From positions 5,073-69,072 of the forward strand of contig CACZDG010000012.1 in assembly GCA_902779865.1 (NCBI GenBank): 64,000 nucleotides of DNA. The letters are read 5' to 3'. This document shows, piece by piece, positions 27,254 to 40,098 of the stretch (positions are counted from its first letter, which is position 1; every line of letters starts with the position of its first letter). The notes beneath the pieces are model-generated. The model did not search any database, was not told the DNA's origin, and saw nothing but the letters and a program-made list of their open reading frames with translations. The stretch is from an uncultured bacterium (lineage in GTDB: Bacteria; Verrucomicrobiota; Kiritimatiellia; RFP12; UBA1067). A program made the position numbers and the translations under genes.

Positions 27254-28963
27254 TCAACTGATGGTTTTGTTTTTTACTGCGATTTTAGGTCCTCGATAGC
27301 TATGCGTGAGATATTCATCTGCAGAATTTAGCGCAATTGCTTCTTCCACAAAGAGGCGCGACGGCAGGCTGAACTTCGGCGGCAACCAATCGAATGGAGA
27401 ACGGCGCTCAAACAAGTCGTCCCACCACTGGGCAGCTCCATCAGGCGATGGAACCGCCTTCCCTTCAAGTGAGATTTCGCACTTCCGCACAAACGGCCAT
27501 AATCCCGAGATGCAGTTCATCCGTCCGTTCCTGATTTCACATTTAACGCATCCGAAAAGCCCCCTCAGCATTCTGAAAATGCAGCTGATGAGAGTCGCAG
27601 CCACTACAATACCGCCCAGCGCCCATCCAACGTATGGGATATAGAGCAGGAATGTTGCCAACATTAGCACGATGAGCACTCCCAGGACGCCATCAAGTGA
27701 TATGCTCGGCGAGAACGGGCGAATGACCGCGATTTGCCCCTGCCCGTCATCCGTCGAGAGTATCTTCATCCCGCGCGGCAGCCTCGCGAGACGTGCCCTG
27801 CGTGCGGCATGATACGCCGCATCATCCCATTTGTTTGCGCGGTTGATTAGGAGCGCCAGTATAAATGCCGTGCGGGAGTATGTCCTGACCAACGGTCGGC
27901 AAGGAGGAATACACTCGCCATCTGCCCATATCTTGACCGTGTCAAAGTCATATTCCGTCACATCTGAGTCGCTCGTCCCGCCAGTCACCTGCGACCACGG
28001 CGACAACGTAAACCGCCGTACAGGAAGCGGCAGCCAGCCAAACAACCTGCGTCTGCACACACCCTCGCCGTTTGCGAAGCGTATTTCCGCCTCGCATTCT
28101 ACACATGCGGCGATCGCCTTTATCAACATGGCAACCGAGATGACGAAAACGGCAAGAGCGCACAACAGCGCAATGAACACGACACGCCTCGACGGCATAT
28201 AAACACCCGACTTCGCGAGCGCGTACATCAAACCGAACCCGGCAAATCCAATGCCTGTCAAGAGAATCGTCCAAAGAAGGCAATTGGCGATTGTCTTCAC
28301 GCGTCGCGATCTGTCTTTTCTGGTTATTTTCGCCAAGAAACCATCGTCCGTCTCTTTGAACTCGAGCGCCTCGTCGTCGAGCGAGCCGTCCACTACTTCG
28401 GTGAGTGGGATGTCGTGGGGTTCGCTTGGGAGGTCATCAATAATCTGAAACGAATAGGCGACGCCGATCTTGACGGCACCTTTCGGCGCGGATGCGAGAA
28501 AGCGGTCGTACCATCCACCACCATAGCCAAGGCGCTTGCCGCCGCGCGTAAAGGCAAGGCCGGGGATGATCCAGGCGTAGACTTTCTTCGGCTCTACGAT
28601 ATCGGCATCGACCGGCTCGCGGATTCCCATTGGACCGCGCCGCAGATTCTTCTCGCCCAATCCCTTCAGTTTCGCGAGTTCGTAGGTCTCGCCGTTCCAA
28701 CGCGGCGCGACCACTTCAACTCCCATGTGAAGCATGTATTCGATGTAGGGATAGATGTTGATTTCGTCGGGCGAGGCGAGGTAAACGGCCAACGCGCCAC
28801 CGTAGTCAAACGGATCGACCATCAAGCCTATGTCGCTTCGCACCTTGAGCTTTTCGCAGATGGCGGCATCCGCGGCGGCCTTTTGATCCGCCGCAAGCTC
28901 CTTCCGCCGCGCCTTCATCGTGCGCCGAAGCTCGGCCTTGTTACTGCTGCTATTCATTATCAT
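27254..28963 (-). CDS. 5-formyltetrahydrofolate cyclo-ligase fused to a C-terminal membrane region
   Basis: KAELRRTMKARR, IIPGLAFTRGGKRLGYGGGWYDRFL, HDIPL; then about 370 aa with two hydrophobic hairpins. Confidence 0.85.
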   Translation of the reverse strand: MIMNSSSNKAELRRTMKARRKELAADQKAAADAAICEKLKVRSDIGLMVDPFDYGGALAVYLASPDEINIYPYIEYMLHMGVEVVAPRWNGETYELAKLKGLGEKNLRRGPMGIREPVDADIVEPKKVYAWIIPGLAFTRGGKRLGYGGGWYDRFLASAPKGAVKIGVAYSFQIIDDLPSEPHDIPLTEVVDGSLDDEALEFKETDDGFLAKITRKDRSRRVKTIANCLLWTILLTGIGFAGFGLMYALAKSGVYMPSRRVVFIALLCALAVFVISVAMLIKAIAACVECEAEIRFANGEGVCRRRLFGWLPLPVRRFTLSPWSQVTGGTSDSDVTEYDFDTVKIWADGECIPPCRPLVRTYSRTAFILALLINRANKWDDAAYHAARRARLARLPRGMKILSTDDGQGQIAVIRPFSPSISLDGVLGVLIVLMLATFLLYIPYVGWALGGIVVAATLISCIFRMLRGLFGCVKCEIRNGRMNCISGLWPFVRKCEISLEGKAVPSPDGAAQWWDDLFERRSPFDWLPPKFSLPSRLFVEEAIALNSADEYLTHSYRGPKIAVKNKTIS

Positions 28964-28994
28964 CCTTTTTAGGATCTAACCGCTTACCCATGCA

Positions 28995-30278
28995 TCACTC
29001 CAAATCCAGCTGCCTTGAGATGGCGTTAACGAAATCATCGCGGACCTCCGCCTCGGCGGCAAAGCGCGGCCAGTCGCGGACGGCGCTTTTGACCTCGTCC
29101 AGCACGGCGCGCGCCTTGCGCTCGCGCATGTTCGCGAAGCGCGCGCAGGAGAGGATGTCGTCGTCCGATATGCCGATGCGCTTTCCGTTCACGGACATCT
29201 GGTGGCGCGAGGTCCAGTCGCCTTCAGGATTGTGCGCGTAGCACTCGTCATACGCAGGGGCGAGCGACCATTCGCCGCGCCGGTCCATGAGATACGCGAT
29301 ATTCTTCACGTGGTCGTCGCAGTTCCACGCCAGCACGTTGAACGCCATGCGCCGGAAGAGCTGTTCGTTGGCGCGCGCATCGTTCACGACGCGGCGCGTG
29401 ACACGAAACGCCTGTTCATAAGAATAGGCGGCGGGATCGTTGAAATCCATGTGCGCAAGCGCTCCAAGCGTCTGCGCATGCAGCTTGCCGCCGTCCGGGA
29501 GCCTGTCGAAACGACGCGTCATGAAGTGGCGCTTGTTCCAGAGGCGACACTCCGTCATCTCGATTCCCGCTGCGCGGGCCATCAGATGGTAGGCGTATTC
29601 GACGCGCCCGTAGCCCCATTTGTCGTCGCCTTCCTTGTCGCCGTTTCCCGTGAGCCCATCGAACTTGATGAGCCAGTAGCCGAATCCCTCGGGAAGCGCG
29701 ACTTGTCCGGATCTCACCTCGCCCGTCGCCTCGTTCCACCCGATGATCGCCTTGGCGCGCGCGCCGCCGGCGGAAGAACCGACCTTGAGAATCGACGAAT
29801 ACCGCTTCATGTCCGGCACAAGCTTTGCCGCGGCCTCGGTGCGGGATTTCAACACCTCGTCAGCAAGTTCCGCCAGCGCATCCACATGTATCTCCTCCGA
29901 CTTGTCCTCATCATCGAACATGGTCGGCTTGTATTCGAGTGCGCCCATGCCGCGTACACCGGTATAGCACAGCCGCTCTATCGGCGTAAGGCTCTCGGGA
30001 AACCTGCCCTGGGTCTTCAGCCATGCGCGGATTACCGCGTTTCCGAACTTGTCCGGGACGGAATCGGACAGCATTCCGGGAAGACCGTGAAAAGACCCTT
30101 GTGGAAGCGCAGGAAAGGAATACGCAGCGATACCGACAGGCATCATCAACGGCGAAGGTTCGATCCCGGCATCCCGGAATTCCCTGTCGTATGCAAAAGA
30201 CGCACAGGGCGCGCCGTCCACGCGGGAGGCAACTCCTATCCGCCGCCCCCACAGCAATACTTCCACCGCTTCGCTCAT
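28995..30278 (-). CDS. hipA: HipA-family Ser/Thr kinase toxin
   Basis: EVLLWGRRIG N-terminal domain, SAGGARAKA P-loop, NCDDHVKN catalytic motif, LAPAYD; 4-nt overlap with upstream HTH gene. Confidence 0.92.
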   Translation of the reverse strand: MSEAVEVLLWGRRIGVASRVDGAPCASFAYDREFRDAGIEPSPLMMPVGIAAYSFPALPQGSFHGLPGMLSDSVPDKFGNAVIRAWLKTQGRFPESLTPIERLCYTGVRGMGALEYKPTMFDDEDKSEEIHVDALAELADEVLKSRTEAAAKLVPDMKRYSSILKVGSSAGGARAKAIIGWNEATGEVRSGQVALPEGFGYWLIKFDGLTGNGDKEGDDKWGYGRVEYAYHLMARAAGIEMTECRLWNKRHFMTRRFDRLPDGGKLHAQTLGALAHMDFNDPAAYSYEQAFRVTRRVVNDARANEQLFRRMAFNVLAWNCDDHVKNIAYLMDRRGEWSLAPAYDECYAHNPEGDWTSRHQMSVNGKRIGISDDDILSCARFANMRERKARAVLDEVKSAVRDWPRFAAEAEVRDDFVNAISRQLDLE

Positions 30279-30607
30279 GCATTCCCCCATTCTTTTGCCG
30301 CCCCGCATCTCCTGTGCGCGCGCTTTGGCAATGTACGTTTTGCAAGAATGTCCTGCGGCGACAACTGCACTTCAGGTAGCAGCATCTCGAATCCGACAGT
30401 CAGGCCCAATGCACCGCAGACGGCGAAAAAAGCATCAATTCTTACGCCGCCCGCCCCCATTTCAAGCCTCTCAAGCGTGCGCTTGGACACGCCTGCACGC
30501 TGTGCCAACTCTGCCTGCGTCAGGTTCCGGCGGAGCCGAATCTGCGCGAGTCGTCTGCCCGACTCGCGCAACGCCTCATCTTCAGTCATCGCCACATTGT
30601 ATTTCAT
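30275..30607 (-). CDS. XRE-family HTH antitoxin (HipB-like)
   Basis: RLRRNLTQAELAQRAGVSKRTLERLE; translationally coupled to hipA. Confidence 0.9.
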   Translation of the reverse strand: MKYNVAMTEDEALRESGRRLAQIRLRRNLTQAELAQRAGVSKRTLERLEMGAGGVRIDAFFAVCGALGLTVGFEMLLPEVQLSPQDILAKRTLPKRAHRRCGAAKEWGNA

Positions 30608-30620
30608 AATTCTTCCTTTC

Positions 30621-30657
30621 TGGCGAGTTGTCGGCATTTCATCCGCACAATTCGCCA
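30621..30657. promoter_or_regulatory. Imperfect inverted repeat in the hipBA leader (candidate operator)
   Basis: TGGCGAGTTGTCGG...CCGCACAATTCGCCA, downstream of minus-strand TGGTTTAAT at about 30668-30676. Confidence 0.5.
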
Positions 30658-30706
30658 AATCGGGCATATTAAACCATATTCCCCCGCGCAATGCAAGAGG
30701 AATCAT

Positions 30707-31300
30707 CTATTTCGCGCCATCTCCTTGGCGCAATTCCTTGTAGCGGAAACAGAAGCGGGCGTGGTCGTTGACGAGACCCACGGACTGCATAAACGCATAG
30801 ATGGTCACCGAGCCGAGGAACTTGAAGCCGCGCGCCTTGAGCTCGGCGGCGATGCGATCCGAAAGCTCCGTACGCGCGGGGGCGGTCCATTCGTCGGACT
30901 TCGCGTTGTCGGGATTGTGCAGCGTCTTTCCGTCCGTGAACGCCCAGAGCCACTTTGAGAACGTGCCGCACTCGCGGCGAAGCGCGATGAAGCACTGCGC
31001 GTCGTGGATGATGGCCTCGATCTTGCGCCGCGAGCGGATCATGCCCGGCACGGCGAGGATACGCGCGATGTCACGTTCGCCGTAGCGGGCGATCTTCTCG
31101 AAGTCGAACCGCTCGAACGCGACGCGAAACGCCGCGCGCTTCTGGATGATCGTGTCCCAGCTCAGGCCGCACTGCAGCACCTCGTACATCAGGTACTCGA
31201 ACAGCTTGCGGTCGTTCCGGCACGGCGTTCCCCACTCCTTGTCGTGGTACGTGCGCTCCAGGTCGTTCAACTCGAAATATGGACATCGTATCTTTTTCAT
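30707..31300 (-). CDS. tag: DNA-3-methyladenine glycosylase I
   Basis: RCP...YHDKEWG, LQCGLSWDTI, FKFLGSVTIYAFMQSVGLVNDH...C. Confidence 0.93.
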   Translation of the reverse strand: MKKIRCPYFELNDLERTYHDKEWGTPCRNDRKLFEYLMYEVLQCGLSWDTIIQKRAAFRVAFERFDFEKIARYGERDIARILAVPGMIRSRRKIEAIIHDAQCFIALRRECGTFSKWLWAFTDGKTLHNPDNAKSDEWTAPARTELSDRIAAELKARGFKFLGSVTIYAFMQSVGLVNDHARFCFRYKELRQGDGAK

Positions 31301-31357
31301 CTTTGACCTTCGCCGTCCTTTCAACGACTGAAACCTTCTTGATCGCCAAAAGGTCAA

Positions 31358-32413
31358 TCAGACCTTTAACACGGTGATCTTCCCCCCCTTCTTGGCAACT
31401 TGGATAACGCGCTGGCACTGCAACGTGCTGATGATTGGAGAAATATCCGGCATCGGCACGTGATATGCGCTCTTGAGGATCGCCTTAAGGCTGCCAACAT
31501 CGGGCACCTTGCGCCGGCCACTCCGTATGTCAGCTGCCACGGCAAGAACAGTTTCGCGCCGATACGCCTTTCCAGCGGAGACCGTCGCGCTCAATAAACC
31601 GTCTTGCGGCGTCAACGTCTCGAACTCGCCCTTGTCGTACCAGATCGTCCGGCAATTCCCGCACACGTCGATCTCGACATACTTCTTGCCCGACGCCACT
31701 TTCAACAGGCTCATCGACTCCCCGCAGACAGGGCAAACGCATCCGAGCTGTTCATGTCTCTTCGCGGCAGCGATCATATCCCCCATGCTCTCCGCACTCA
31801 CGGTCTTCTTCAGTGCCTCGATTTTTGCTGACATGCCGCCACACACTGTACATCTCAAGCATTTGAAATTCGATTTAGTCCATGCGACATCCAACTTCCC
31901 GCCGCAGCGCGGGCAGTTTGAAGGGACGGTTTTGTTTTTCGTCGATGTCTCCTTCCGAATCTGCGGAAGTTCAATGAACTCAGTGCAGGCGTTGCGGAAA
32001 CTTGCAGGAGTCTTCGCCCCACCCAGGCCGTATGCGGACTTCCCTCCCTCTCGAATCTTGGCGGCAAGCGCAGAAAAGTCACTGTCGTTCGAGACGATGC
32101 AGATTCCCTCGCACGGATTCCTGTACAGGAACTCCATCGCGTCGATTACTAGCGCAATGTCGGCCACGTTCTTCCCCGAGACGTTGCTCACCTGCGGCCT
32201 CGCGACTACTCCGTATTCCCGCTGTGCCTTCGCCCATCCACCATCCGATGCAAAGCAATTGACCATTCCGTATGCCCTGCGGGCGATGGGCATCCCGATT
32301 GCGTACACCTTCTTGAAGATATCGCCGGCAAGCGCGGCACTGATGTTGTCTGCGTCAATCAGCACCGCCAGCCGTTGCTGAGTCTGCTGTGGCCTTGAAA
32401 CTTCTTCTTTCAT
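31358..32413 (-). CDS. NYN (LabA/PIN-like) RNase domain with tandem zinc ribbons and a C-terminal HTH-like region
   Basis: VLIDADN, ADIALVIDAM, SNDSDF; CPRC/CTVC and CPVC/IDVCGNCRTIWYDKGE (zf-TFIIB-like). Confidence 0.85.
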   Translation of the reverse strand: MKEEVSRPQQTQQRLAVLIDADNISAALAGDIFKKVYAIGMPIARRAYGMVNCFASDGGWAKAQREYGVVARPQVSNVSGKNVADIALVIDAMEFLYRNPCEGICIVSNDSDFSALAAKIREGGKSAYGLGGAKTPASFRNACTEFIELPQIRKETSTKNKTVPSNCPRCGGKLDVAWTKSNFKCLRCTVCGGMSAKIEALKKTVSAESMGDMIAAAKRHEQLGCVCPVCGESMSLLKVASGKKYVEIDVCGNCRTIWYDKGEFETLTPQDGLLSATVSAGKAYRRETVLAVAADIRSGRRKVPDVGSLKAILKSAYHVPMPDISPIISTLQCQRVIQVAKKGGKITVLKV

Positions 32414-32525
32414 TTCATCAACCTGTTGGTAGATAGATTCGCGTGTGCAAGTAGTATACCATGTCTTTCATGGTCAGAAATGCAAAAACTGCCGAATTCT
32501 TCATTTGCCGAAAACAACAAAACCT

Positions 32526-35351
32526 TCAGGTTGTCTGATTCGGCGTTGGAGAGCTGCACATCTCAATCTCGCCAAGAACCGCATCGAGTCGTTCGCAGAC
32601 ATCTTCTGCCAGGAAACGAAGTACGCGATACCCGTTTCGTTGCAGAAGCGCATCTTCACGCCTGGCAAGGCGGTAAAACGAAATGTCAGAGATGGATTCC
32701 GGCGTGTCCAACTTGATCGCCAGTTTTATCCTTTCTGAACAAATATCCACTTCAAGATATGGATTTGTGCCACATGGTATCGGCAATCGGCTATTTTGCT
32801 CGAACATTTCTTTGTTGCCGTCAAGCGAGTCAAGCCGGGCAAAGAGGAATCGCCGGGCAGATTCTTTGGGGCTTACCTTGACGGCCCCTTCAGCATTGCC
32901 TCCTTGGATTGCCAATGTTGCCCGAAGAAACAAATCGGCGAGCGCAACATCCACGCCGTCTCGGCACAGACGCCTCACACTGTCGGAAAACCGTTCCTTC
33001 CATTTGGGTTCAATTGGCAGCCGCACTTCCGCTGGCCACCCCTCCGCCACTCCCAGCGGCACCATCATCGTATAGCCAATCGCCTGATAACCGTTCCGCC
33101 GTTTTTCAAACATCTTCTGGCAAACGGCAACATTGGAATCAAGATAGTCATAGATGCGTACCTCACGTTTCCCGTCATGAAGGCGGTGAAGCCGTCCGGC
33201 ATACTGCGTAATTCGCCCTTTCCATGATATGGGCGTTGCAAGGAAAAGCGTGTCAAGTCGTGAATCATCGAAACCTTCACCAAGATATGAACCCGTTGCA
33301 ATAATGACACGTTCCTCGCTATCACCTATCGCAGCAAGTCCTTCCTTGCGTTCCCGCGTTGCCCTCAACCCCATGCCGCCGGTAAGCGAAACTACATTTT
33401 TCACGCGTCTTTCCAGAAGTGCCTCGAATACGGCGACATGTTCCCGGCGTTCGCTGAGGACAACAGGCGAACGCCCCTCTTTTACCGCAGCGACAACATC
33501 ATCAGCAATAAGGCGGTTACGAGGGGCGTCTGCGATCATCTCTTTCAGCATCCCATCGTAGTCAAAATGTCCGTCATTTTCAGGGAGTTCGATCTTCATG
33601 CGAAAACTTGTCTGTCTGACATGAACGACATGCGCAAAGGGCTCACGACGGCTGAGTTGTTTGGCATCAACCCGGTGCCGAATCGGCCCAAGTTGCATCA
33701 TGATGAGTGGATCGTGTCCGTCCTTGCGCATCACGGTCGCAGACAGCCCCAAAACATATCGGCACGGGGCGGCATCTACTATGGCCTCAAACGATTCCGC
33801 CGCCACGGAATGGCATTCATCAACGATAATCTGCCCATACTCTTTCACACGCGGATCGACAACGCCCTTGCGGCAAAGGCTCTGCATCAACGCGACGTCT
33901 ATCCTCCCCGTCCACCGACCGGAACCGCCGCCAATCTTGCCAATGTCTTTTTCGGGGATGTTGAAAAATGACGCGATTCTTGCAATCCACTGTGCCTGAA
34001 GTTGGCGACGATTTACGAGGATGAGCGTGTTGGTCTTTCGCTGCGCAATTATAGCGAGCGCGACAACTGTCTTGCCAAACGCCGTACCAGCGGCAAGTAT
34101 GCCCGTATCATGCTTCGCGATGTCTGCAGCTGCTGCTTTTTGCTCTGGTCTCAGCTCACCGTAGAACTCAACTTGCAACGGGACCCCACCATAGCGCTTG
34201 TCGTCAATGTGCGCCTTCAATCCGCCGTCTTTCAGTATCTGGACCGCTGAATCAAGACATCCCCTCGGCATTTCAAGATATTTGCCGCCATTCAGTGCGC
34301 GGGATATGATGCGGGGCTTGCCATACACGGAAAACCGCATGCGCTCTGCTTCGTAGAATTCGGGATTGGTAAACGACGCACTCCTAATTAAACGGCTCCG
34401 CAACTCGTCTGACAAACCTTCCTGTGAAACATAAACACGGTTTGCAAGCACCACCTCAATTGGTTTCTCGGAAATCCGAGTTGGACAATCTCCAGGTGTC
34501 AAAGTGGACCACAATGGAAGAAAGAACGTCCATGGCTTTTCTTCGTCACGCGCCGCATTCCCTATTTCAACCAATGAACGGTTTTCGGTCTTAGCGCGCG
34601 CTACTAGCGTTGCAATTTCCGTCTTCGCCAGTCGGCGCACCGATGAAAGGAATGCCCATTGATCGTCATACGGCACCCAGTCATCATTGACGAAACAGCT
34701 GTTCCCGAGTTTACGCGCCTCAAACTGAAGGGGGAGTGCGATAAGGTTGCCAAAACCGCCTTGGGGGAGCGTCGCCTGATTTGGTATTATGCGGTCGTAT
34801 GAGTCAAGGCTGATTTCCGGATGTGCCTCCAACGTCAGAGTAATGATGTAGAACAATGCTGCGCGCACCATCCGCGCGCTGATGCGTTCCTCGAAAAAGA
34901 ACCAGATGTGCGCGCCTTTCCCAGACCTTGATCGCTCCAATGCAATCGGCAGAGCCAGCTCACGGATTTTCCGCACTACGCACAAGGCGTCTCTGCGCCA
35001 AGATGACTCGTCAAAGTCAATAACAGCAAAAGAGACCGTTTCGTCTTTTGCCATCGGATATGCGCCCATCTCAAATGGTTTCTGTCCACCATCCCTTCCT
35101 CGCAGATGCCATCGGATTACCTCATCCGATACCGGCTTTAACTTTCGATTAGAGCAGTTAGAACATTTCACGCCGTGCATCAAGCCACACAGCCCACGCA
35201 CCCACTGGTTTTCGCAATAGGGAGAATAACCCTTCTTGCCCGTCTTGGCGTTATCATAACGTTTCGCAAAAACATCATCCCGCCCGCTGAACAACGAACG
35301 GAAGAAGGTCACCTTCTCAGCGTTGGAAGAAATCTTGTCTATAATAGCCAT
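32526..35351 (-). CDS. TOTE-type archaeo-eukaryotic primase domain + SF2 (DEAD/DEAH, ResIII-like) helicase + DUF559-like domain
   Basis: FRSLFSGRDDVFAKR, VIDFD, ERSRSGKGAHIWFF, GNLIALPLQ; AGTAFGKT, IVDECH, GLSAT, QYAGRLHR; LLQRNGYRVLRF. Confidence 0.88.
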   Translation of the reverse strand: MAIIDKISSNAEKVTFFRSLFSGRDDVFAKRYDNAKTGKKGYSPYCENQWVRGLCGLMHGVKCSNCSNRKLKPVSDEVIRWHLRGRDGGQKPFEMGAYPMAKDETVSFAVIDFDESSWRRDALCVVRKIRELALPIALERSRSGKGAHIWFFFEERISARMVRAALFYIITLTLEAHPEISLDSYDRIIPNQATLPQGGFGNLIALPLQFEARKLGNSCFVNDDWVPYDDQWAFLSSVRRLAKTEIATLVARAKTENRSLVEIGNAARDEEKPWTFFLPLWSTLTPGDCPTRISEKPIEVVLANRVYVSQEGLSDELRSRLIRSASFTNPEFYEAERMRFSVYGKPRIISRALNGGKYLEMPRGCLDSAVQILKDGGLKAHIDDKRYGGVPLQVEFYGELRPEQKAAAADIAKHDTGILAAGTAFGKTVVALAIIAQRKTNTLILVNRRQLQAQWIARIASFFNIPEKDIGKIGGGSGRWTGRIDVALMQSLCRKGVVDPRVKEYGQIIVDECHSVAAESFEAIVDAAPCRYVLGLSATVMRKDGHDPLIMMQLGPIRHRVDAKQLSRREPFAHVVHVRQTSFRMKIELPENDGHFDYDGMLKEMIADAPRNRLIADDVVAAVKEGRSPVVLSERREHVAVFEALLERRVKNVVSLTGGMGLRATRERKEGLAAIGDSEERVIIATGSYLGEGFDDSRLDTLFLATPISWKGRITQYAGRLHRLHDGKREVRIYDYLDSNVAVCQKMFEKRRNGYQAIGYTMMVPLGVAEGWPAEVRLPIEPKWKERFSDSVRRLCRDGVDVALADLFLRATLAIQGGNAEGAVKVSPKESARRFLFARLDSLDGNKEMFEQNSRLPIPCGTNPYLEVDICSERIKLAIKLDTPESISDISFYRLARREDALLQRNGYRVLRFLAEDVCERLDAVLGEIEMCSSPTPNQTT

Positions 35352-35412
35352 GCCGCGGAACGAAAGATTAGTTTAGCATTTCTCATCATTCTTGTGCGGG
35401 CAATCGCGTTCG

Positions 35413-37784
35413 TCAGATGTAGCGGCCCGTTACGCTTTGGGGGCAGGATTTGATTTCGGAGGGGGTGCCGGTGGCGACGATTCGGCCGCCGGCCTTGCCG
35501 CCGCCGGGGCCCATGTCCACGATCCAGTCTGCCGAGCGGATGACGTCGAGGTCGTGCTCGATCACGATCACGGTTGCGCCGTTGCCGATCAGATGACGGA
35601 ACACCTCCATCAACGTGCGCACATCGAGGGGATGAAGACCGATCGTCGGCTCGTCGAAGACGAACACCGAATCGCCCTGTCCGCGTCCCATCTCGCTGGC
35701 GAGCTTGAGCCGCTGCGCCTCGCCGCCGGAAAGACCCGGCGTCTCCTCTCCGAGCGTGAGGTACCCGAGGCCGATGTCGTGCAGGATCTGAAGACGGCTT
35801 TTGACGAGCGGAAGGTCCGCGCAGGCGTCCAGCGCCTCGTCCACGCTCATCGCCATCAGCTCGGGAAGGGACACGCCCTTCCGCCTGACGGCAAACGCCA
35901 CCTTCGCGTACCGCGCGCCGCGGCAGTCGGGACAGGGAATGTCCACGTCCGGCAGGAACTGGACGTCCAGGTTGATTTCGCCCGTGCCGTCGCAGGTCGG
36001 ACAGCGCAGCGCGCCCGTGTTGTACGAGAAGTCGCCCGCCTTGTAGCGATGCCGGGCGCGCAGAGCGCGCGGACATGCGCGGGGAGTGCGCGTCCCCCAA
36101 TCTGTGCGGCAAGCCCCGGAACGAGACTTTCGAGGATCAGCGTCGTCTTTCCGCTGCCGGAAACGCCCGTCACGACCGAAAGTTTGCCCTTGGGGAATAC
36201 AACCTCCAACGGCTGCACGGTATGGATCGCCGAAGTAGAGAGCCGTATCTCACTCGAAGATGCTGATACGCGAAGCTTGTCCCTTGCGTCCTTTTTGTCC
36301 CTTATGTCCTTTGCGTTCTTTGTGTTCTTTGTGGCCAAAAACGGTCCGATCTGTGACTTGGGGTTCTTCGCGATCTCGGCCACCGTTCCTTCTGCTATGA
36401 GTTGTCCGCCATTCGCACCGGCGCCAGGCCCCAGCTCCACGATCCAGTCGGCATGCGAGAGGACCTGCGTGTCGTGGTCCACGAGCAGGACCGTGTTACC
36501 GTCGGCGACCAGGTCGTCCATCACGCCCGTCAGCCCTTCCAGATTCGACGGGTGGAGCCCGATGGACGGTTCGTCGAGGACGTACAGCACGCCCGTCGTC
36601 CTGTTTCTGACCGCCCGGGCAAGCTGCATGCGCTGGCGCTCGCCGGTGGAGAGCGTCGATGCGGCGCGGTCGAGCGAGAGGTAGGAAAGTCCAAGTTCCA
36701 CAAGCCGGCGCGACGTATCGTGGAACGCTTCGCAGATGCGTTCCGCCATCGGACGCATCGGCTTCGGCAGGGACGCGGGAACGCCGCGCACCCACTCCTC
36801 CGCCTCGGCGAGCGTCATTTCGCACGCCTTGTCGAGTGGGATGCCGCGCAAAAGCGGGGCGCGGGCGCGGTCAGAAAGGCGCGTGCCGCCGCAGTCGGGA
36901 CAGGGGCCTTCCTTCAAAAACTTCGCGACGCGCTTCATGCCTTTCTCGTCCTTCACGTTCTTGAGCGCGTTTTCGACGGTGTTGATGGCGTTGAAGAAGG
37001 TGAAGTCCATCTCGCCGGAACGTCCGTCCTTCTTGATCTGATAGACCATGTGGTGCTTTTCCGGCGGCGCGTGCAGGACGATGTCGCGCTCGCGGTCGGT
37101 GAGGTCGTGCCACGGCACATCCGTCCGCACACCAAGATGGTCGCGTGCAATGTCCTTCATGAGCGACCACATGAGCGACTGCCACGGCGCGACGGCACCC
37201 TCGTCAATCGTGAGCGAATCGTCCGGCACGATCGTCGCCAGATCGACTTCGCGCACCACGCCGGTGCCATCACAGCGCTTGCACGCGCCTTGCGAATTGA
37301 AGGCAAGCTCCTCCGCACCGGGTGCGAAGAAACGCGCGCCGCATTCGGGGCAGACCAGCTCGCGCTCCGCCGCCACATCCAACGACGGCGCGAGGTAGTG
37401 TCCGTTCGGACAACGATGCGACGCGAGGCGCGAGTACATGAGCCGGAGCGAGTTGAGCAGTTCCGTCGAGGTACCGAACGTGGAGCGGATGCCGGGGACG
37501 CCTGGACGCTGCCGAAGCGCCAGCGCTGCCGGGACATAGCGCACGTCGTCCACCTCCGCGCGCTCCGCCTGCGTCATCCGCCGGCGGGTGTAGGTGGAGA
37601 GCGATTCGAGATAGCGCCGCGATCCCTCCGCGTACACGATGCCCAGCGCGAGGGAGGACTTACCGCTTCCCGAGACGCCGGCCACGCCGACAATCTTCCC
37701 CAACGGAATATCGACGTCTATGTTCCTGAGGTTGTTTTTCCTCGCCCCGCGCACCTCAATCGCGGCCGGTCTTGTATTGGACAT
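35413..37784 (-). pseudogene. UvrA-like (class II/DrrC-type) ABC ATPase, frameshifted by an internal deletion
   Basis: GVSGSGKSS, LSTGERQR, DEPSIGLHP, second GVSGSGKTT; after APGI the family sequence resumes in another frame at 36045 (YKAGDFSYNTGALRCPTCDG...LSGGEAQR). Confidence 0.82.
36279..36332. repeat. Six degenerate 9-bp tandem units in frame within the uvrA-like gene
   Basis: Minus strand ACAAAGAAC ACAAAGAAC GCAAAGGAC ATAAGGGAC AAAAAGGAC GCAAGGGAC, encoding TKNTKNAKDIRDKKDARD. Confidence 0.75.
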
Positions 37785-37832
37785 TGTTACCTCCATCGTT
37801 GCTTGGATGAATTAGTCAATTCCTTGCATACG

Positions 37833-38669
37833 CTATATGTTCCCTGTAAGGACACGCTTCAGCCTCTTGCCGGCGGCCTCCGCAAGGTGGCGGACAACTG
37901 CGACGGGTGTGGGCTGCGCATTAGACATCTGGAAGCGAGGGAAGAACCTTGTGACGTGTAGGGGAATTTCGGGCGAAACGGATGCCACAAACGCCGCAAT
38001 AGCGTCGATGTCGCTTTCAGTGTCGTTTCGCCCTGGCACGACGAGCGTCGTCACCTCCACATGGCACCCGGCGGCATGAAGCATCCTAATCGTGCGACAC
38101 ACCGCCGCGAAGTCGCCGCCGACCCAATCGTAGTATTCCTGCGACGGCCCCTTGAGGTCAATGTTCGCGGCGTCGATGAGCGGAGCAAGTTCCTCTACGA
38201 CAGCAGCCTCGGCACATCCGTTCGAGACGAGCACGTTGAACATTCCGCGCGTATGGACCTCACGTGCGCAGTCGCGTACGAACTCCCACCCCACAAGCGG
38301 TTCGTTGTAGGTATAGGCAAGTCCAAGATTGCCGCGTTCGCGCCTGACTTTGAGTGCAAGGTCGGCAAGTTCAACCGGCGTAGCACTTTGGCAGGACACG
38401 CCGTTCTCCCCACGCTGCGAGATAGAATCGTTTTGGCAGAACGGACACCTGAGGTTACACCCGAAACTGCCCACGGAAAGCACGTTCTCGCCAGAATGGA
38501 AAAACGCAATCGGCTTCTTTTCGATAGGGTCAAGCGCAAGCGACGTGATCTTACCGTAGTTCGCAGCGACCACGCGCCCGTCCGTCGCCTTCCGCGCACG
38601 GCAAAACCCGAACACTCCCTCGGCAATCCGGCAGTGCCGTGGACACGTGCCGCAAACAGCACTACTCAT
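37833..38669 (-). CDS. AmmeMemoRadiSam system radical SAM enzyme
   Basis: CGTCPRHC, ALDPIEKKP, CNLRCPFCQN, YTYNEP, NIDLKG, HVTRFFP; start at ATG 38669. Confidence 0.92.
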   Translation of the reverse strand: MSSAVCGTCPRHCRIAEGVFGFCRARKATDGRVVAANYGKITSLALDPIEKKPIAFFHSGENVLSVGSFGCNLRCPFCQNDSISQRGENGVSCQSATPVELADLALKVRRERGNLGLAYTYNEPLVGWEFVRDCAREVHTRGMFNVLVSNGCAEAAVVEELAPLIDAANIDLKGPSQEYYDWVGGDFAAVCRTIRMLHAAGCHVEVTTLVVPGRNDTESDIDAIAAFVASVSPEIPLHVTRFFPRFQMSNAQPTPVAVVRHLAEAAGKRLKRVLTGNI

Positions 38670-40098
38670 GGAATACCTCGGCTTGGAAGGTCTCGAACTT
38701 CGTTCCGTTGCGCCAGGCGTCAGCCGGTAGGCCAGCCTTTCTCGAAAGATACGAAAGCGTGGTCTCGAGGTCCCATCCCTGTTCCGGTGCAACTTGCGGA
38801 AGGAATACGGCAAACGCGCCATCCTTCTCAAGCGTCATACCGTCGCGTCCCAGCACGATGTCACGCCACGACGACACTGGCTTCGGCGGCGTGAGGGCCG
38901 ATATCTCCACTCGAATTCCACTCAATTCGCGTTCCGTGACGGGCATGAAACGCGGGTCGTGGAGCGCAGAATCAACCGCCCGCTTGACGACGGCCTCAAC
39001 CAGCGGACGCATCGGCATTATTTCGCCGATGCAGCCGCGCAACGCGCCGGTCGCCCTGTCGTTCAATGTTACAAATGCGCCCATCTTCGCGTCAATTGGA
39101 GAATGGGGAACTGGGGATGGGGAACGGGAATAGGGAACGCCTTTAACCGCACTTTCCATTGAACCACGGGCGATGCGGAGAAGGTACGCCCGCGCTTCGG
39201 CATCAAGAACCTGCCTTCCCTCGCCGGGCCATTCAACGCGTCCAGCTGCGGCCGTGTAGTACACGAAGCGCGAGAAGTCTCTTTCGGCGTCGGACGACGT
39301 CGCATAAGCCAGACGAGCGAACGGCGGTTTCCCGGGAAACGCGCGCAAGGCGAGTTCGATCGGGACGTGTCCGCAGATTGTCGCCCCGGTCTTGCTGATG
39401 TACGCGGCGAATCCATCAGCGTCGCATTTCGACATTAACGAAAATGCCTCGTCATCAACGGATGCCACTTTCGCGCGCACGTCCTCGCCTCCGGAAGTGC
39501 CGTACGGCGCGTAGGAGAAATCCGTGCCATAGTGGGTGAAATCGGAGGAGATCACGAGTAGCGTCTTGTCGTCCATCAGCCGCGCAAGCGCCCGTGCACA
39601 CATCGCCATCTGGTCGCGTCCGAAGGAACCCATCACCAGCGGAACAATCGTGAAGCCAGTCCCCAGCGCGAGCTGGAGGAGCGGATACTCGATTTGCGCG
39701 GAATGTTCCGCTGCGTGTATGCGGTTGTTGCGGGCGACGGGGGCCATGAGCGCAAGGCGGTCGAGCCACTCCTTGTCGATGACAATCTTCCCTAGAGGTG
39801 TCGATACGGACTCAGCCTCCGGCGCGACGAGTCGGTTCTCGATCCATGCACGGTGGCTTGGAGCAAGGACGACGACGCGGTTGTATTTCATGCCGCGTAC
39901 GAGTCGTGCGGCTCGCCAGGCAATCTCGCCGGAGTACGCCCATCCCGCGTGTGGCATGAGAAGGGCGTTCGGTTTGTCGGGAAGGGCGGGCATCGATTTC
40001 TCGCCACCGACTCTCTTCTCCCACTTCTCGGCAATTGCGCGAATCTCGCGTTCCGTTCCCGGATACCATGATCCGGCTATGGTGCTTTCAATCGTCAT
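38662..40098 (-). CDS. AmmeMemoRadiSam proteins B (MEMO) and A (AMMECR1) fused
   Basis: PHAGWAYSG, APSH, EHS, SSDFTHYG, TICG; then GAFVTL...LRGCIG, DPRF, FLPQVA. Confidence 0.92.
   Translation of the reverse strand: MTIESTIAGSWYPGTEREIRAIAEKWEKRVGGEKSMPALPDKPNALLMPHAGWAYSGEIAWRAARLVRGMKYNRVVVLAPSHRAWIENRLVAPEAESVSTPLGKIVIDKEWLDRLALMAPVARNNRIHAAEHSAQIEYPLLQLALGTGFTIVPLVMGSFGRDQMAMCARALARLMDDKTLLVISSDFTHYGTDFSYAPYGTSGGEDVRAKVASVDDEAFSLMSKCDADGFAAYISKTGATICGHVPIELALRAFPGKPPFARLAYATSSDAERDFSRFVYYTAAAGRVEWPGEGRQVLDAEARAYLLRIARGSMESAVKGVPYSRSPSPVPHSPIDAKMGAFVTLNDRATGALRGCIGEIMPMRPLVEAVVKRAVDSALHDPRFMPVTERELSGIRVEISALTPPKPVSSWRDIVLGRDGMTLEKDGAFAVFLPQVAPEQGWDLETTLSYLSRKAGLPADAWRNGTKFETFQAEVFHE

Follow-up and report, generated by a model that had tools for sequence, protein, structure and literature searches.

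Introduction

Does a compact run of five genes in an uncultured bacterium encode a defence system whose parts act together, or is it a mosaic of genes with separate histories? The run lies on the minus strand of a 64,000-nucleotide stretch of a Kiritimatiellia genome (GenBank assembly GCA_902779865.1, contig CACZDG010000012.1, positions 5,073 to 69,072; the whole stretch is hereafter the window, and coordinates count from its first letter). Its genes encode a 941-residue primase-helicase (the AEP gene), a NYN-domain protein with C-terminal zinc ribbons (NYN-zf), a Tag-family DNA glycosylase and a HipA-HipB pair (HipBA), and they are bordered by a UvrA-like gene (UvrA2) and an MTHFS-like gene. 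A preliminary description, made from the sequence, had proposed that the run could be a conflict island in which a sensor helicase-primase is coupled to the NYN RNase as its effector, with the glycosylase and the HipBA pair as possible accessories. The five co-oriented minus-strand genes listed there, with their coordinates and identities, agree with both the open reading frame (ORF) list and Pfam. We found that the cluster is best explained as a mosaic of independent genes in which the 941-residue protein would act alone, as a primase-polymerase (PrimPol) and ATPase of the type of the insertion sequence (IS)-excision enhancer IEE, in microhomology-mediated end joining (MMEJ), IS excision and the formation of deletions, a reading to which we assign a probability of roughly 0.77.

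The 941-residue protein and the IS-excision enhancer

The protein combines an AEP PrimPol domain (residues 12-248), an XPB/UvsW-like SF2 ATPase (residues ~399-760, with matches to ResIII and DEAD) and a Vsr/DUF559-like C-terminal domain (residues ~840-930). Searched with the window protein, the E. coli O157:H7 Sakai chromosome gave a single match (E = 4.3e-189, 44% identity, query residues 7-763), which fell exactly on ECs_1305, annotated 'IS-excision enhancer IEE' and located within SpLE1, and BLASTP between the two proteins gave a collinear alignment of 757 residues at 42% identity. ECs_1305 itself matches PF22548 at 1.7e-98. All published catalytic residues of IEE have identical counterparts in the alignment: the metal-binding DxD...D triad (D142, D144 and D216 of IEE; D112, D114 and D186 here), the nucleotide-binding His (H178; H148), the Walker A Lys (K451; K427) and the Arg finger (R735; R720), while the DExH box of the window protein reads DECH at residues 511-514. 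A sequence search of the PDB returned XPB-type helicases and the CRISPR-associated PrimPol. Judged by homology, the 941-residue protein is a full-length homologue of IEE and a member of its family (Z1568-like, or 'AEP-TOTE').

The architecture of IEE, a two-domain protein of about 786 residues, is exceeded in the window protein by ~170 C-terminal residues, and the variant with an added Vsr domain is common to thousands of homologues. This region holds the canonical DUF559/Vsr motif EVDLL...IELDGxQH...RRDRRKD in distant homologues; the IELDGxQH core has become IKLDTPES in the window, with IMLD, VMLD and ISFD also occurring within the clade of 51-95% identity, and the catalytic Glu and His are gone from the window protein and from most of that clade. 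Its motifs suggest that the domain is catalytically degenerate and probably binds DNA only.

IEE is an error-prone polymerase that depends on Mn2+, joins 3' overhangs sharing 4 or more nucleotides (nt) of homology, requires both of its domains for end joining, fills gaps in vitro and has DNA-dependent ATPase activity with no unwinding activity (PMC9943667). In vivo it boosts the excision of copy-out/paste-in IS elements (bioRxiv 10.1101/2023.06.07.543989). By analogy with this E. coli enzyme, the 941-residue protein would have a comparable biochemical activity and a role in IS excision.

More than 7,600 full-length homologues were found, at about 50% identity across Verrucomicrobiota, Acidobacteriota, Planctomycetota, Proteobacteria and others, and 584 genome loci carried homologues. 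In 82 plasmid records there were homologues with a query coverage of at least 80%, and the plasmid homologues listed end at query residues 762-802, lacking the Vsr domain as IEE does. Matches in the phage genome collection were confined to the helicase domain (23-29%) and gave no evidence for a phage origin of the AEP gene.

Composition and neighbourhoods of the AEP gene

The AEP gene is compositionally foreign to the window. At third codon positions its GC content (GC3) is 0.545, whereas 22 other long ORFs of the window average 0.761 (sd 0.060; z = -3.6); the neighbouring values are 0.855 for Tag, 0.758 for HipA, 0.693 for NYN-zf, which is a slight reduction, and 0.576 for HipB, and Tag, HipA and UvrA2 are native in composition. 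The low GC content is centred on the AEP gene, at 0.51-0.54 over 32.5-35.5 kb compared to 0.60-0.66 in the flanks, so the AT-rich segment that had been placed by eye at 31.4-35.3 kb is real and narrower than first drawn. We confirmed the earlier failure to see an integrase or flanking direct repeats: there was no integrase among the flanking genes in Pfam scans, which covered genes from 27254 to 48814, and the repeat scan of the window gave only short, chance-level repeats and no island borders. As a tRNA scan of the window was also negative, an integrative genomic island was rejected.

We searched the surroundings of homologues for recurring partners. No match to the window's Tag, HipA, HipB or MTHFS protein was found by tblastn in 80 distant AEP loci (0/80), and NYN occurred in one of the 80, 4 kb off and on the opposite strand; L048, which had matched a custom NYN hidden Markov model, was discarded after Pfam showed a carboxyl transferase. 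All-against-all clustering of the flanking ORFs of the 80 loci produced no cluster exceeding 6 loci. Direct neighbours from about 170 loci were then made non-redundant (210, with 96 downstream and 114 upstream) and scanned with Pfam. No Pfam family occurred more than twice downstream, where NYN, MPG, DinB, XhoI and AbiEii appeared once each, and the upstream set comprised AbiEii toxin 7 times, AAA_14/DUF4143 5-6 times, Fic and ParE twice each and NYN once. Because no family recurs in more than 2 of the 96 downstream or 7 of the 114 upstream neighbours, the AEP gene is a solo gene, one that tends toward accessory DNA rich in toxin-antitoxin (TA) genes. The pairing of primase-helicase with NYN-zf, whose recurrence the preliminary description had suggested as a check, is unique to the window. 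Neither did a PADLOC scan (PADLOC-DB v2) of nine genes report a known defence system; it gave only generic PrimPol, PbeA-helicase and HTH matches, and none that was significant for NYN, Tag or HipA.

Structural variation at the locus in close relatives

Close relatives of the AEP gene differ in what adjoins it. Their similarity to the window ends just past the AEP stop codon and restarts at the start of Tag, and because of this break the NYN-zf segment (31343-32508) is present in the window only and absent from all close AEP relatives. Among relatives of 86-97% identity, the slot after AEP is taken by KilA-N and DUF1648, by KilA-N carrying a NYN-OST-HTH insertion, by AAA_21 or directly by Tag, which speaks against the proposed coupling of a sensor helicase-primase to a NYN effector. 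Contig L150, whose AEP gene is 97% identical, reads intact UvrA2 (859 aa), AEP, KilA-N, DUF1648 and a SWIM protein; L203 has the same run followed by Tag; and L151, L173 and L199 have a 0.8-kb NYN-OST-HTH gene inserted in the KilA-N gene, with Tag next in L173. AEP is followed by an AAA_21 ATPase in L152, and directly by Tag and then a nitroreductase in the genome G006.

Two further genomes of the genus show the site with little or nothing of the AEP gene. UvrA2 is followed by DUF1648 and Tag in G003, with no AEP gene, and G009 retains only the first 32 AEP codons, abutting Tag (L088, G009:C126, 1180-1881), which corresponds to a deletion of window positions 31309-35256; the upstream and downstream genes at this remnant are DUF3990 and a nitroreductase, respectively. 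The interval between UvrA2 and AEP in L152 (1-2700) and L159 (2868-5717) contains DUF1648, an 81-bp 5' fragment of Tag, a duplicated 3' end of UvrA2 and AAA_14/DUF4143, an arrangement that speaks for nested rearrangements at the site of insertion. At lower identity the flanks change again. L154 and L156 (78-79%) have PRiA4_ORF3 upstream of AEP and, downstream, a glycosylase fusion of Ogt-like (DNA_binding_1) and MPG domains (L156 3986-5038, 4 bp after the 78%-identical AEP; L154 3714-4334). UPF0158 and rubrerythrin flank AEP upstream and downstream in P0003 (83%), as do PDDEXK_2 and an SNF2 helicase in P0012 (71%), and L141 (P0007, 81%) has a NYN-OST-HTH gene 18 bp upstream of AEP.

Insertion sequences were also observed at the locus in relatives, a notable setting for an IEE homologue: L158 (2553-3947) carries an IS30-like gene (HTH_38) between AEP and the NYN cassette, and the AEP gene of L160 (501-2345) is interrupted at codon ~400 by a DDE_Tnp_1 transposase.

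Genes with NYN domains

NYN-zf has the acidic motifs LIDADN, VIDAM and SNDSDF and is a predicted RNase. It is present in 15 of 33 genus genomes, and the neighbourhoods examined there all differ, none including AEP, Tag or HipBA; the radical SAM gene found near it in the window is about 2 kb away in G032. The PDB sequence search with NYN-zf gave no match. A second copy (72% nt and 76% aa identity) occurs downstream of thiG on contig C272 of the window's own genome (L099 956-2711), followed by an internally deleted Tag fragment, of which 36 bp are identical to the 3' end of the window Tag, and by DUF1648, with no AEP gene; C272 is a paralogous locus or a contig of a related strain binned into the metagenome-assembled genome (MAG). 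The adjacency of NYN-zf and Tag on this contig implies that their association is older than and independent of AEP, and NYN-zf is, on present sequence comparisons, probably an independent resident or accessory gene.

The NYN-OST-HTH gene of the relatives appears in several settings. One contig (L238 4501-8389) reads rubrerythrin, NYN-OST-HTH, MTHFS (207 aa), UvrA2 (841 aa) and nitroreductase, with the starts of NYN, MTHFS and UvrA2 overlapping by 4 bp; these three genes may form a conserved operon, and the same families flank the window cluster. In another context NYN is followed by a HipA remnant, SNF2 (DUF3670), DUF3791 and DUF3990. The gene of ~0.8 kb, together with about 47 bp upstream, retains 91.5% nt identity across unrelated sites (L151 3369-4218, inside the KilA-N gene; L230 1791-2589; L235 2332-3130, adjoining a 46-aa HipA remnant), and most contigs that carry it are very short. 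This distribution suggests that the NYN-OST-HTH gene behaves like a small mobile cassette. Much of the recurring proximity of NYN and AEP would then arise because AEP inserted where NYN genes were already resident and because the NYN-OST-HTH gene moves.

Other genes of the cluster and its flanks

The cluster is part of a co-oriented run (27254-40098) formed by the MTHFS-like gene, the five genes, the UvrA-like pseudogene, the radical SAM gene and the Memo-AMMECR1 gene, and gaps between the five genes are 0-112 nt in the ORF list.

Table 1 Genes of the co-oriented run in the window.
Feature	Coordinates	Strand	Support and remarks
569-aa MTHFS-like protein	27254-28963	minus	PF01812 3.2e-30, TIGR02727
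HipA-family Ser/Thr kinase toxin	28995-30308	minus	Pfam HipA_C 7.5e-45, Couple_hipA 2.6e-14
HipB-like HTH antitoxin	30275-30706	minus	Pfam HTH_31 and HTH_3; start codon uncertain
Tag, 3-methyladenine DNA glycosylase I	ORF 30707-31357, likely ATG at 31300	minus	Pfam Adenine_glyco 2.4e-65
351-aa protein, NYN and C-terminal zinc ribbons	31358-32413	minus	Pfam NYN 1.3e-25, Zn_ribbon_TFIIB 4.3e-11
941-aa protein, AEP-TOTE, ResIII/DEAD and weak DUF559	32526-35351	minus	Pfam AEP-TOTE 1.1e-83, DUF559 4.9e-5
Class-II UvrA-like gene, broken	35339-37796	minus	two frames: 35856-37796 and 35339-36112
Radical SAM gene and fused Memo-AMMECR1 gene (AmmeMemoRadiSam trio)	37833-40098	minus	directly upstream of the UvrA-like gene

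PF03352 covers Tag over profile positions 5-176 of 177. The protein scores 175.5 bits against an NCBIfam equivalog cut-off of 232.5, and is hence a member of the family and not a proven equivalog. Its gene is 88-95% identical at the nt level in genus genomes, whether AEP is nearby or not, and by this pattern is a resident gene of housekeeping type. The HipB-like protein matches TIGR03070 couple_hipB (8.6e-11) under the family cut-off, and its gene overlaps the start of hipA by 34 nt. The catalytic loop NCDDHVKN and the APAYD motif of HipA align to the HipT and HipA structures, with the loop intact. In five genus genomes, HipA homologues (70-76% nt identity) never share a contig with Tag or AEP. 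As read from these features, HipBA is a separate, self-sufficient type II TA insert.

The UvrA-like gene is broken by a 127-bp internal, frame-shifting deletion at 36045/36046. The missing 127 bp are present in three genus genomes and in the 97%-identical contig L150, where the ORF of 859 aa is intact, and the window copy is either a pseudogene of recent origin or the product of misassembly. The gene identifies the site of insertion and belongs to no system. Microhomology at the deletion junction, judged by eye against relatives, amounts to 0-1 nt, which leaves an MMEJ signature unsupported there. The MTHFS-like gene is a resident gene; the 5-formyltetrahydrofolate cyclo-ligase match of its product is limited to residues 9-191, and about 370 C-terminal residues are without a Pfam match.

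Weighing the explanations

A mosaic of independent genes brings together the homology and conserved residues of the 941-residue protein, the foreign composition of its gene, the structural variants and the absence of any conserved partner. The AEP gene would have been acquired horizontally and would have landed between the UvrA2 gene and Tag, in what appears to be a fast-rearranging chromosomal region in this Kiritimatiellia-like genus. By its homology to IEE, the protein would be a Mn2+-dependent, error-prone primase-polymerase whose SF2 ATPase domain may hold DNA ends together, such that 3' overhangs with short microhomology are joined and filled by MMEJ; in cells it would promote the excision of copy-out/paste-in IS elements and local deletions, with the Vsr domain, presumably catalytically dead, serving as a DNA-binding appendage. 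NYN-zf, with its predicted RNase activity, Tag, which would excise 3-methyladenine bases, and MTHFS would be residents of the stretch, and HipBA an independent kinase/antitoxin insert. More speculatively, rearrangement at the locus might be driven by the IEE-like enzyme itself, an idea that the cassette insertions, the AEP remnant in G009 and the 127-bp deletion in UvrA2 would fit; no clear microhomology is seen at the UvrA2 junction.

Several observations weigh against a mosaic. Three different NYN genes directly adjoin AEP in the close clade, namely NYN-zf downstream in the window, NYN-OST-HTH downstream in L151, L173 and L199, and NYN-OST-HTH 18 bp upstream in L141, and by a rough estimate that assumes ~0.6 NYN-zf-like genes per genus genome this adjacency is above naive chance. 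That the nuclease motif disappeared in this clade in particular would be consistent with a nuclease acting in trans. Alkylbase glycosylases follow AEP in two lineages (Tag; Ogt-MPG in L154 and L156), which hints at a link to repair, and all relatives are MAGs or metagenome contigs, in which some junctions may be chimeric or assembly artefacts. Nor is it strictly true that such genes are never found together in other genomes, one of the outcomes that the preliminary description had named as telling against its proposal, as a different NYN gene, NYN-OST-HTH, lies directly beside AEP in two other close-clade contexts. The NYN adjacency and the motif loss could be read as an undescribed two-gene conflict module, which would be the preliminary proposal narrowed to this clade and in which an IEE-like primase-helicase that lost its own Vsr nuclease repeatedly recruited NYN RNases, the nuclease-dead protein sensing foreign or aberrant nucleic acid and the adjacent RNase serving as its effector in trans. 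Within the 78-97% clade the three NYN genes abut AEP in three contexts, the acidic motifs of NYN are preserved, and the catalytic Glu and His of Vsr were lost in exactly this clade. Yet at least ten contexts of the same clade have no NYN beside AEP (L150/L178, L203, G006, L152, L094, L140, L143, L145, L147/L154/L156 and L149), the side on which NYN lies differs between contexts, and the NYN gene of L151 is an insertion into a KilA-N gene. The same 0.8-kb cassette moreover occurs in AEP-free contexts at 91.5% nt identity, NYN resides beside MTHFS and UvrA2 without AEP, NYN-zf and Tag are adjacent without AEP on C272, and distant AEP loci are essentially without NYN. We consider such a two-gene system distinctly improbable.

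A cluster for the repair of DNA damage, in which UvrA2, the PrimPol-helicase and Tag (or MPG-Ogt) would cooperate in the repair or tolerance of alkylation damage and the PrimPol would fill gaps after base excision, also seems unlikely. UvrA2 lies upstream of AEP in the window, L150, L151, L152 and L159, Tag lies downstream in six contexts, the Ogt-MPG fusion follows AEP by 4 bp in L156 and is found in L154 as well, a DinB-type polymerase is located 3' of AEP in two distant loci, and gap filling by IEE is established in vitro (PMC9943667). However, G003 has UvrA2 and Tag side by side with no AEP gene, the foreign composition of the AEP gene contrasts with the native one of Tag and UvrA2, the window combines a broken UvrA2 with an intact AEP, and a glycosylase occurs in none of the 80 distant loci and in 1 of 96 downstream contexts. 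Least credible, and in our view very improbable, is joint action of AEP-helicase, NYN, Tag and HipBA against phage as one defence island. The five genes share an orientation and are closely packed, with gaps of 0-112 nt, every family has conflict-linked members and TA toxins are common beside AEP homologues, but examination of about 170 loci turned up no second case of the combination, genus genomes have their HipA homologues on different contigs, Tag has a native composition and is conserved in its own right, PADLOC was negative, and the integrase, tRNA and flanking repeats sought were absent. What endures of the proposed link to conflict is a variable spot of accessory type with a TA module and a gene from a family that acts on mobile elements, without a single coupled system.

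The mosaic reading implies that listing the cluster as a new defence system would be mistaken, which removes a false lead. The many structural variants in near-identical strains make the locus a natural site at which to ask if IEE-like enzymes shape deletions and gene capture.

Comparison with known systems

TOTE stands for TPR, OB, TBP and Effector (Aravind et al. 2022, as cited in PMC12458937). The window protein resembles TOTE conflict systems in that its AEP domain falls in a Pfam family named after them, and the label 'TOTE-associated' given to it earlier had come from that domain name. We rejected membership: neither the scanned flanks nor the recurrent neighbours of homologues include a TPR, cold-shock/OB or TBP gene, and the closest characterised relative is IEE. 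The widespread annotation 'TOTE AEP / DEAD-box helicase' (>7,600 homologues) can be re-labelled as IEE, a family with published biochemistry. The CRISPR-associated primase-polymerase (CAPP; PDB 7nqd/7nqf) shares the AEP fold by sequence (E 5e-12) and PADLOC PrimPol models match the window protein, but the similarity is at the domain level only, the window locus has no CRISPR-Cas context, and CAPP has no helicase fusion.

Among the neighbours, HipBA resembles the E. coli HipA/HipB and Legionella HipT systems in its Couple_hipA and HipA_C domains, intact loop and upstream overlapping HTH gene. It differs from characterised HipBA in that its HipA is distant (E 3e-5 to HipT) and its HipB-like protein falls below the NCBIfam cut-off. 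The NYN domain of NYN-zf is 39-45% identical to that of the relatives' NYN-OST-HTH proteins, of the LabA-like (TIGR00288-type) kind, with zinc ribbons in place of OST-HTH.

The closest likeness is to IEE (ECs_1305), with which the window protein shares a collinear AEP PrimPol and SF2 ATPase, PF22548, a solo gene and a setting in mobile or accessory DNA. Compared to IEE, it adds ~170 C-terminal residues that form a Vsr/DUF559-like domain and comes from a Kiritimatiellia-like host. On this comparison, the AEP gene is a further member of the IEE family, representing the common variant with an added Vsr domain and, within it, a putatively nuclease-dead subclade, located in a rearrangement hotspot.

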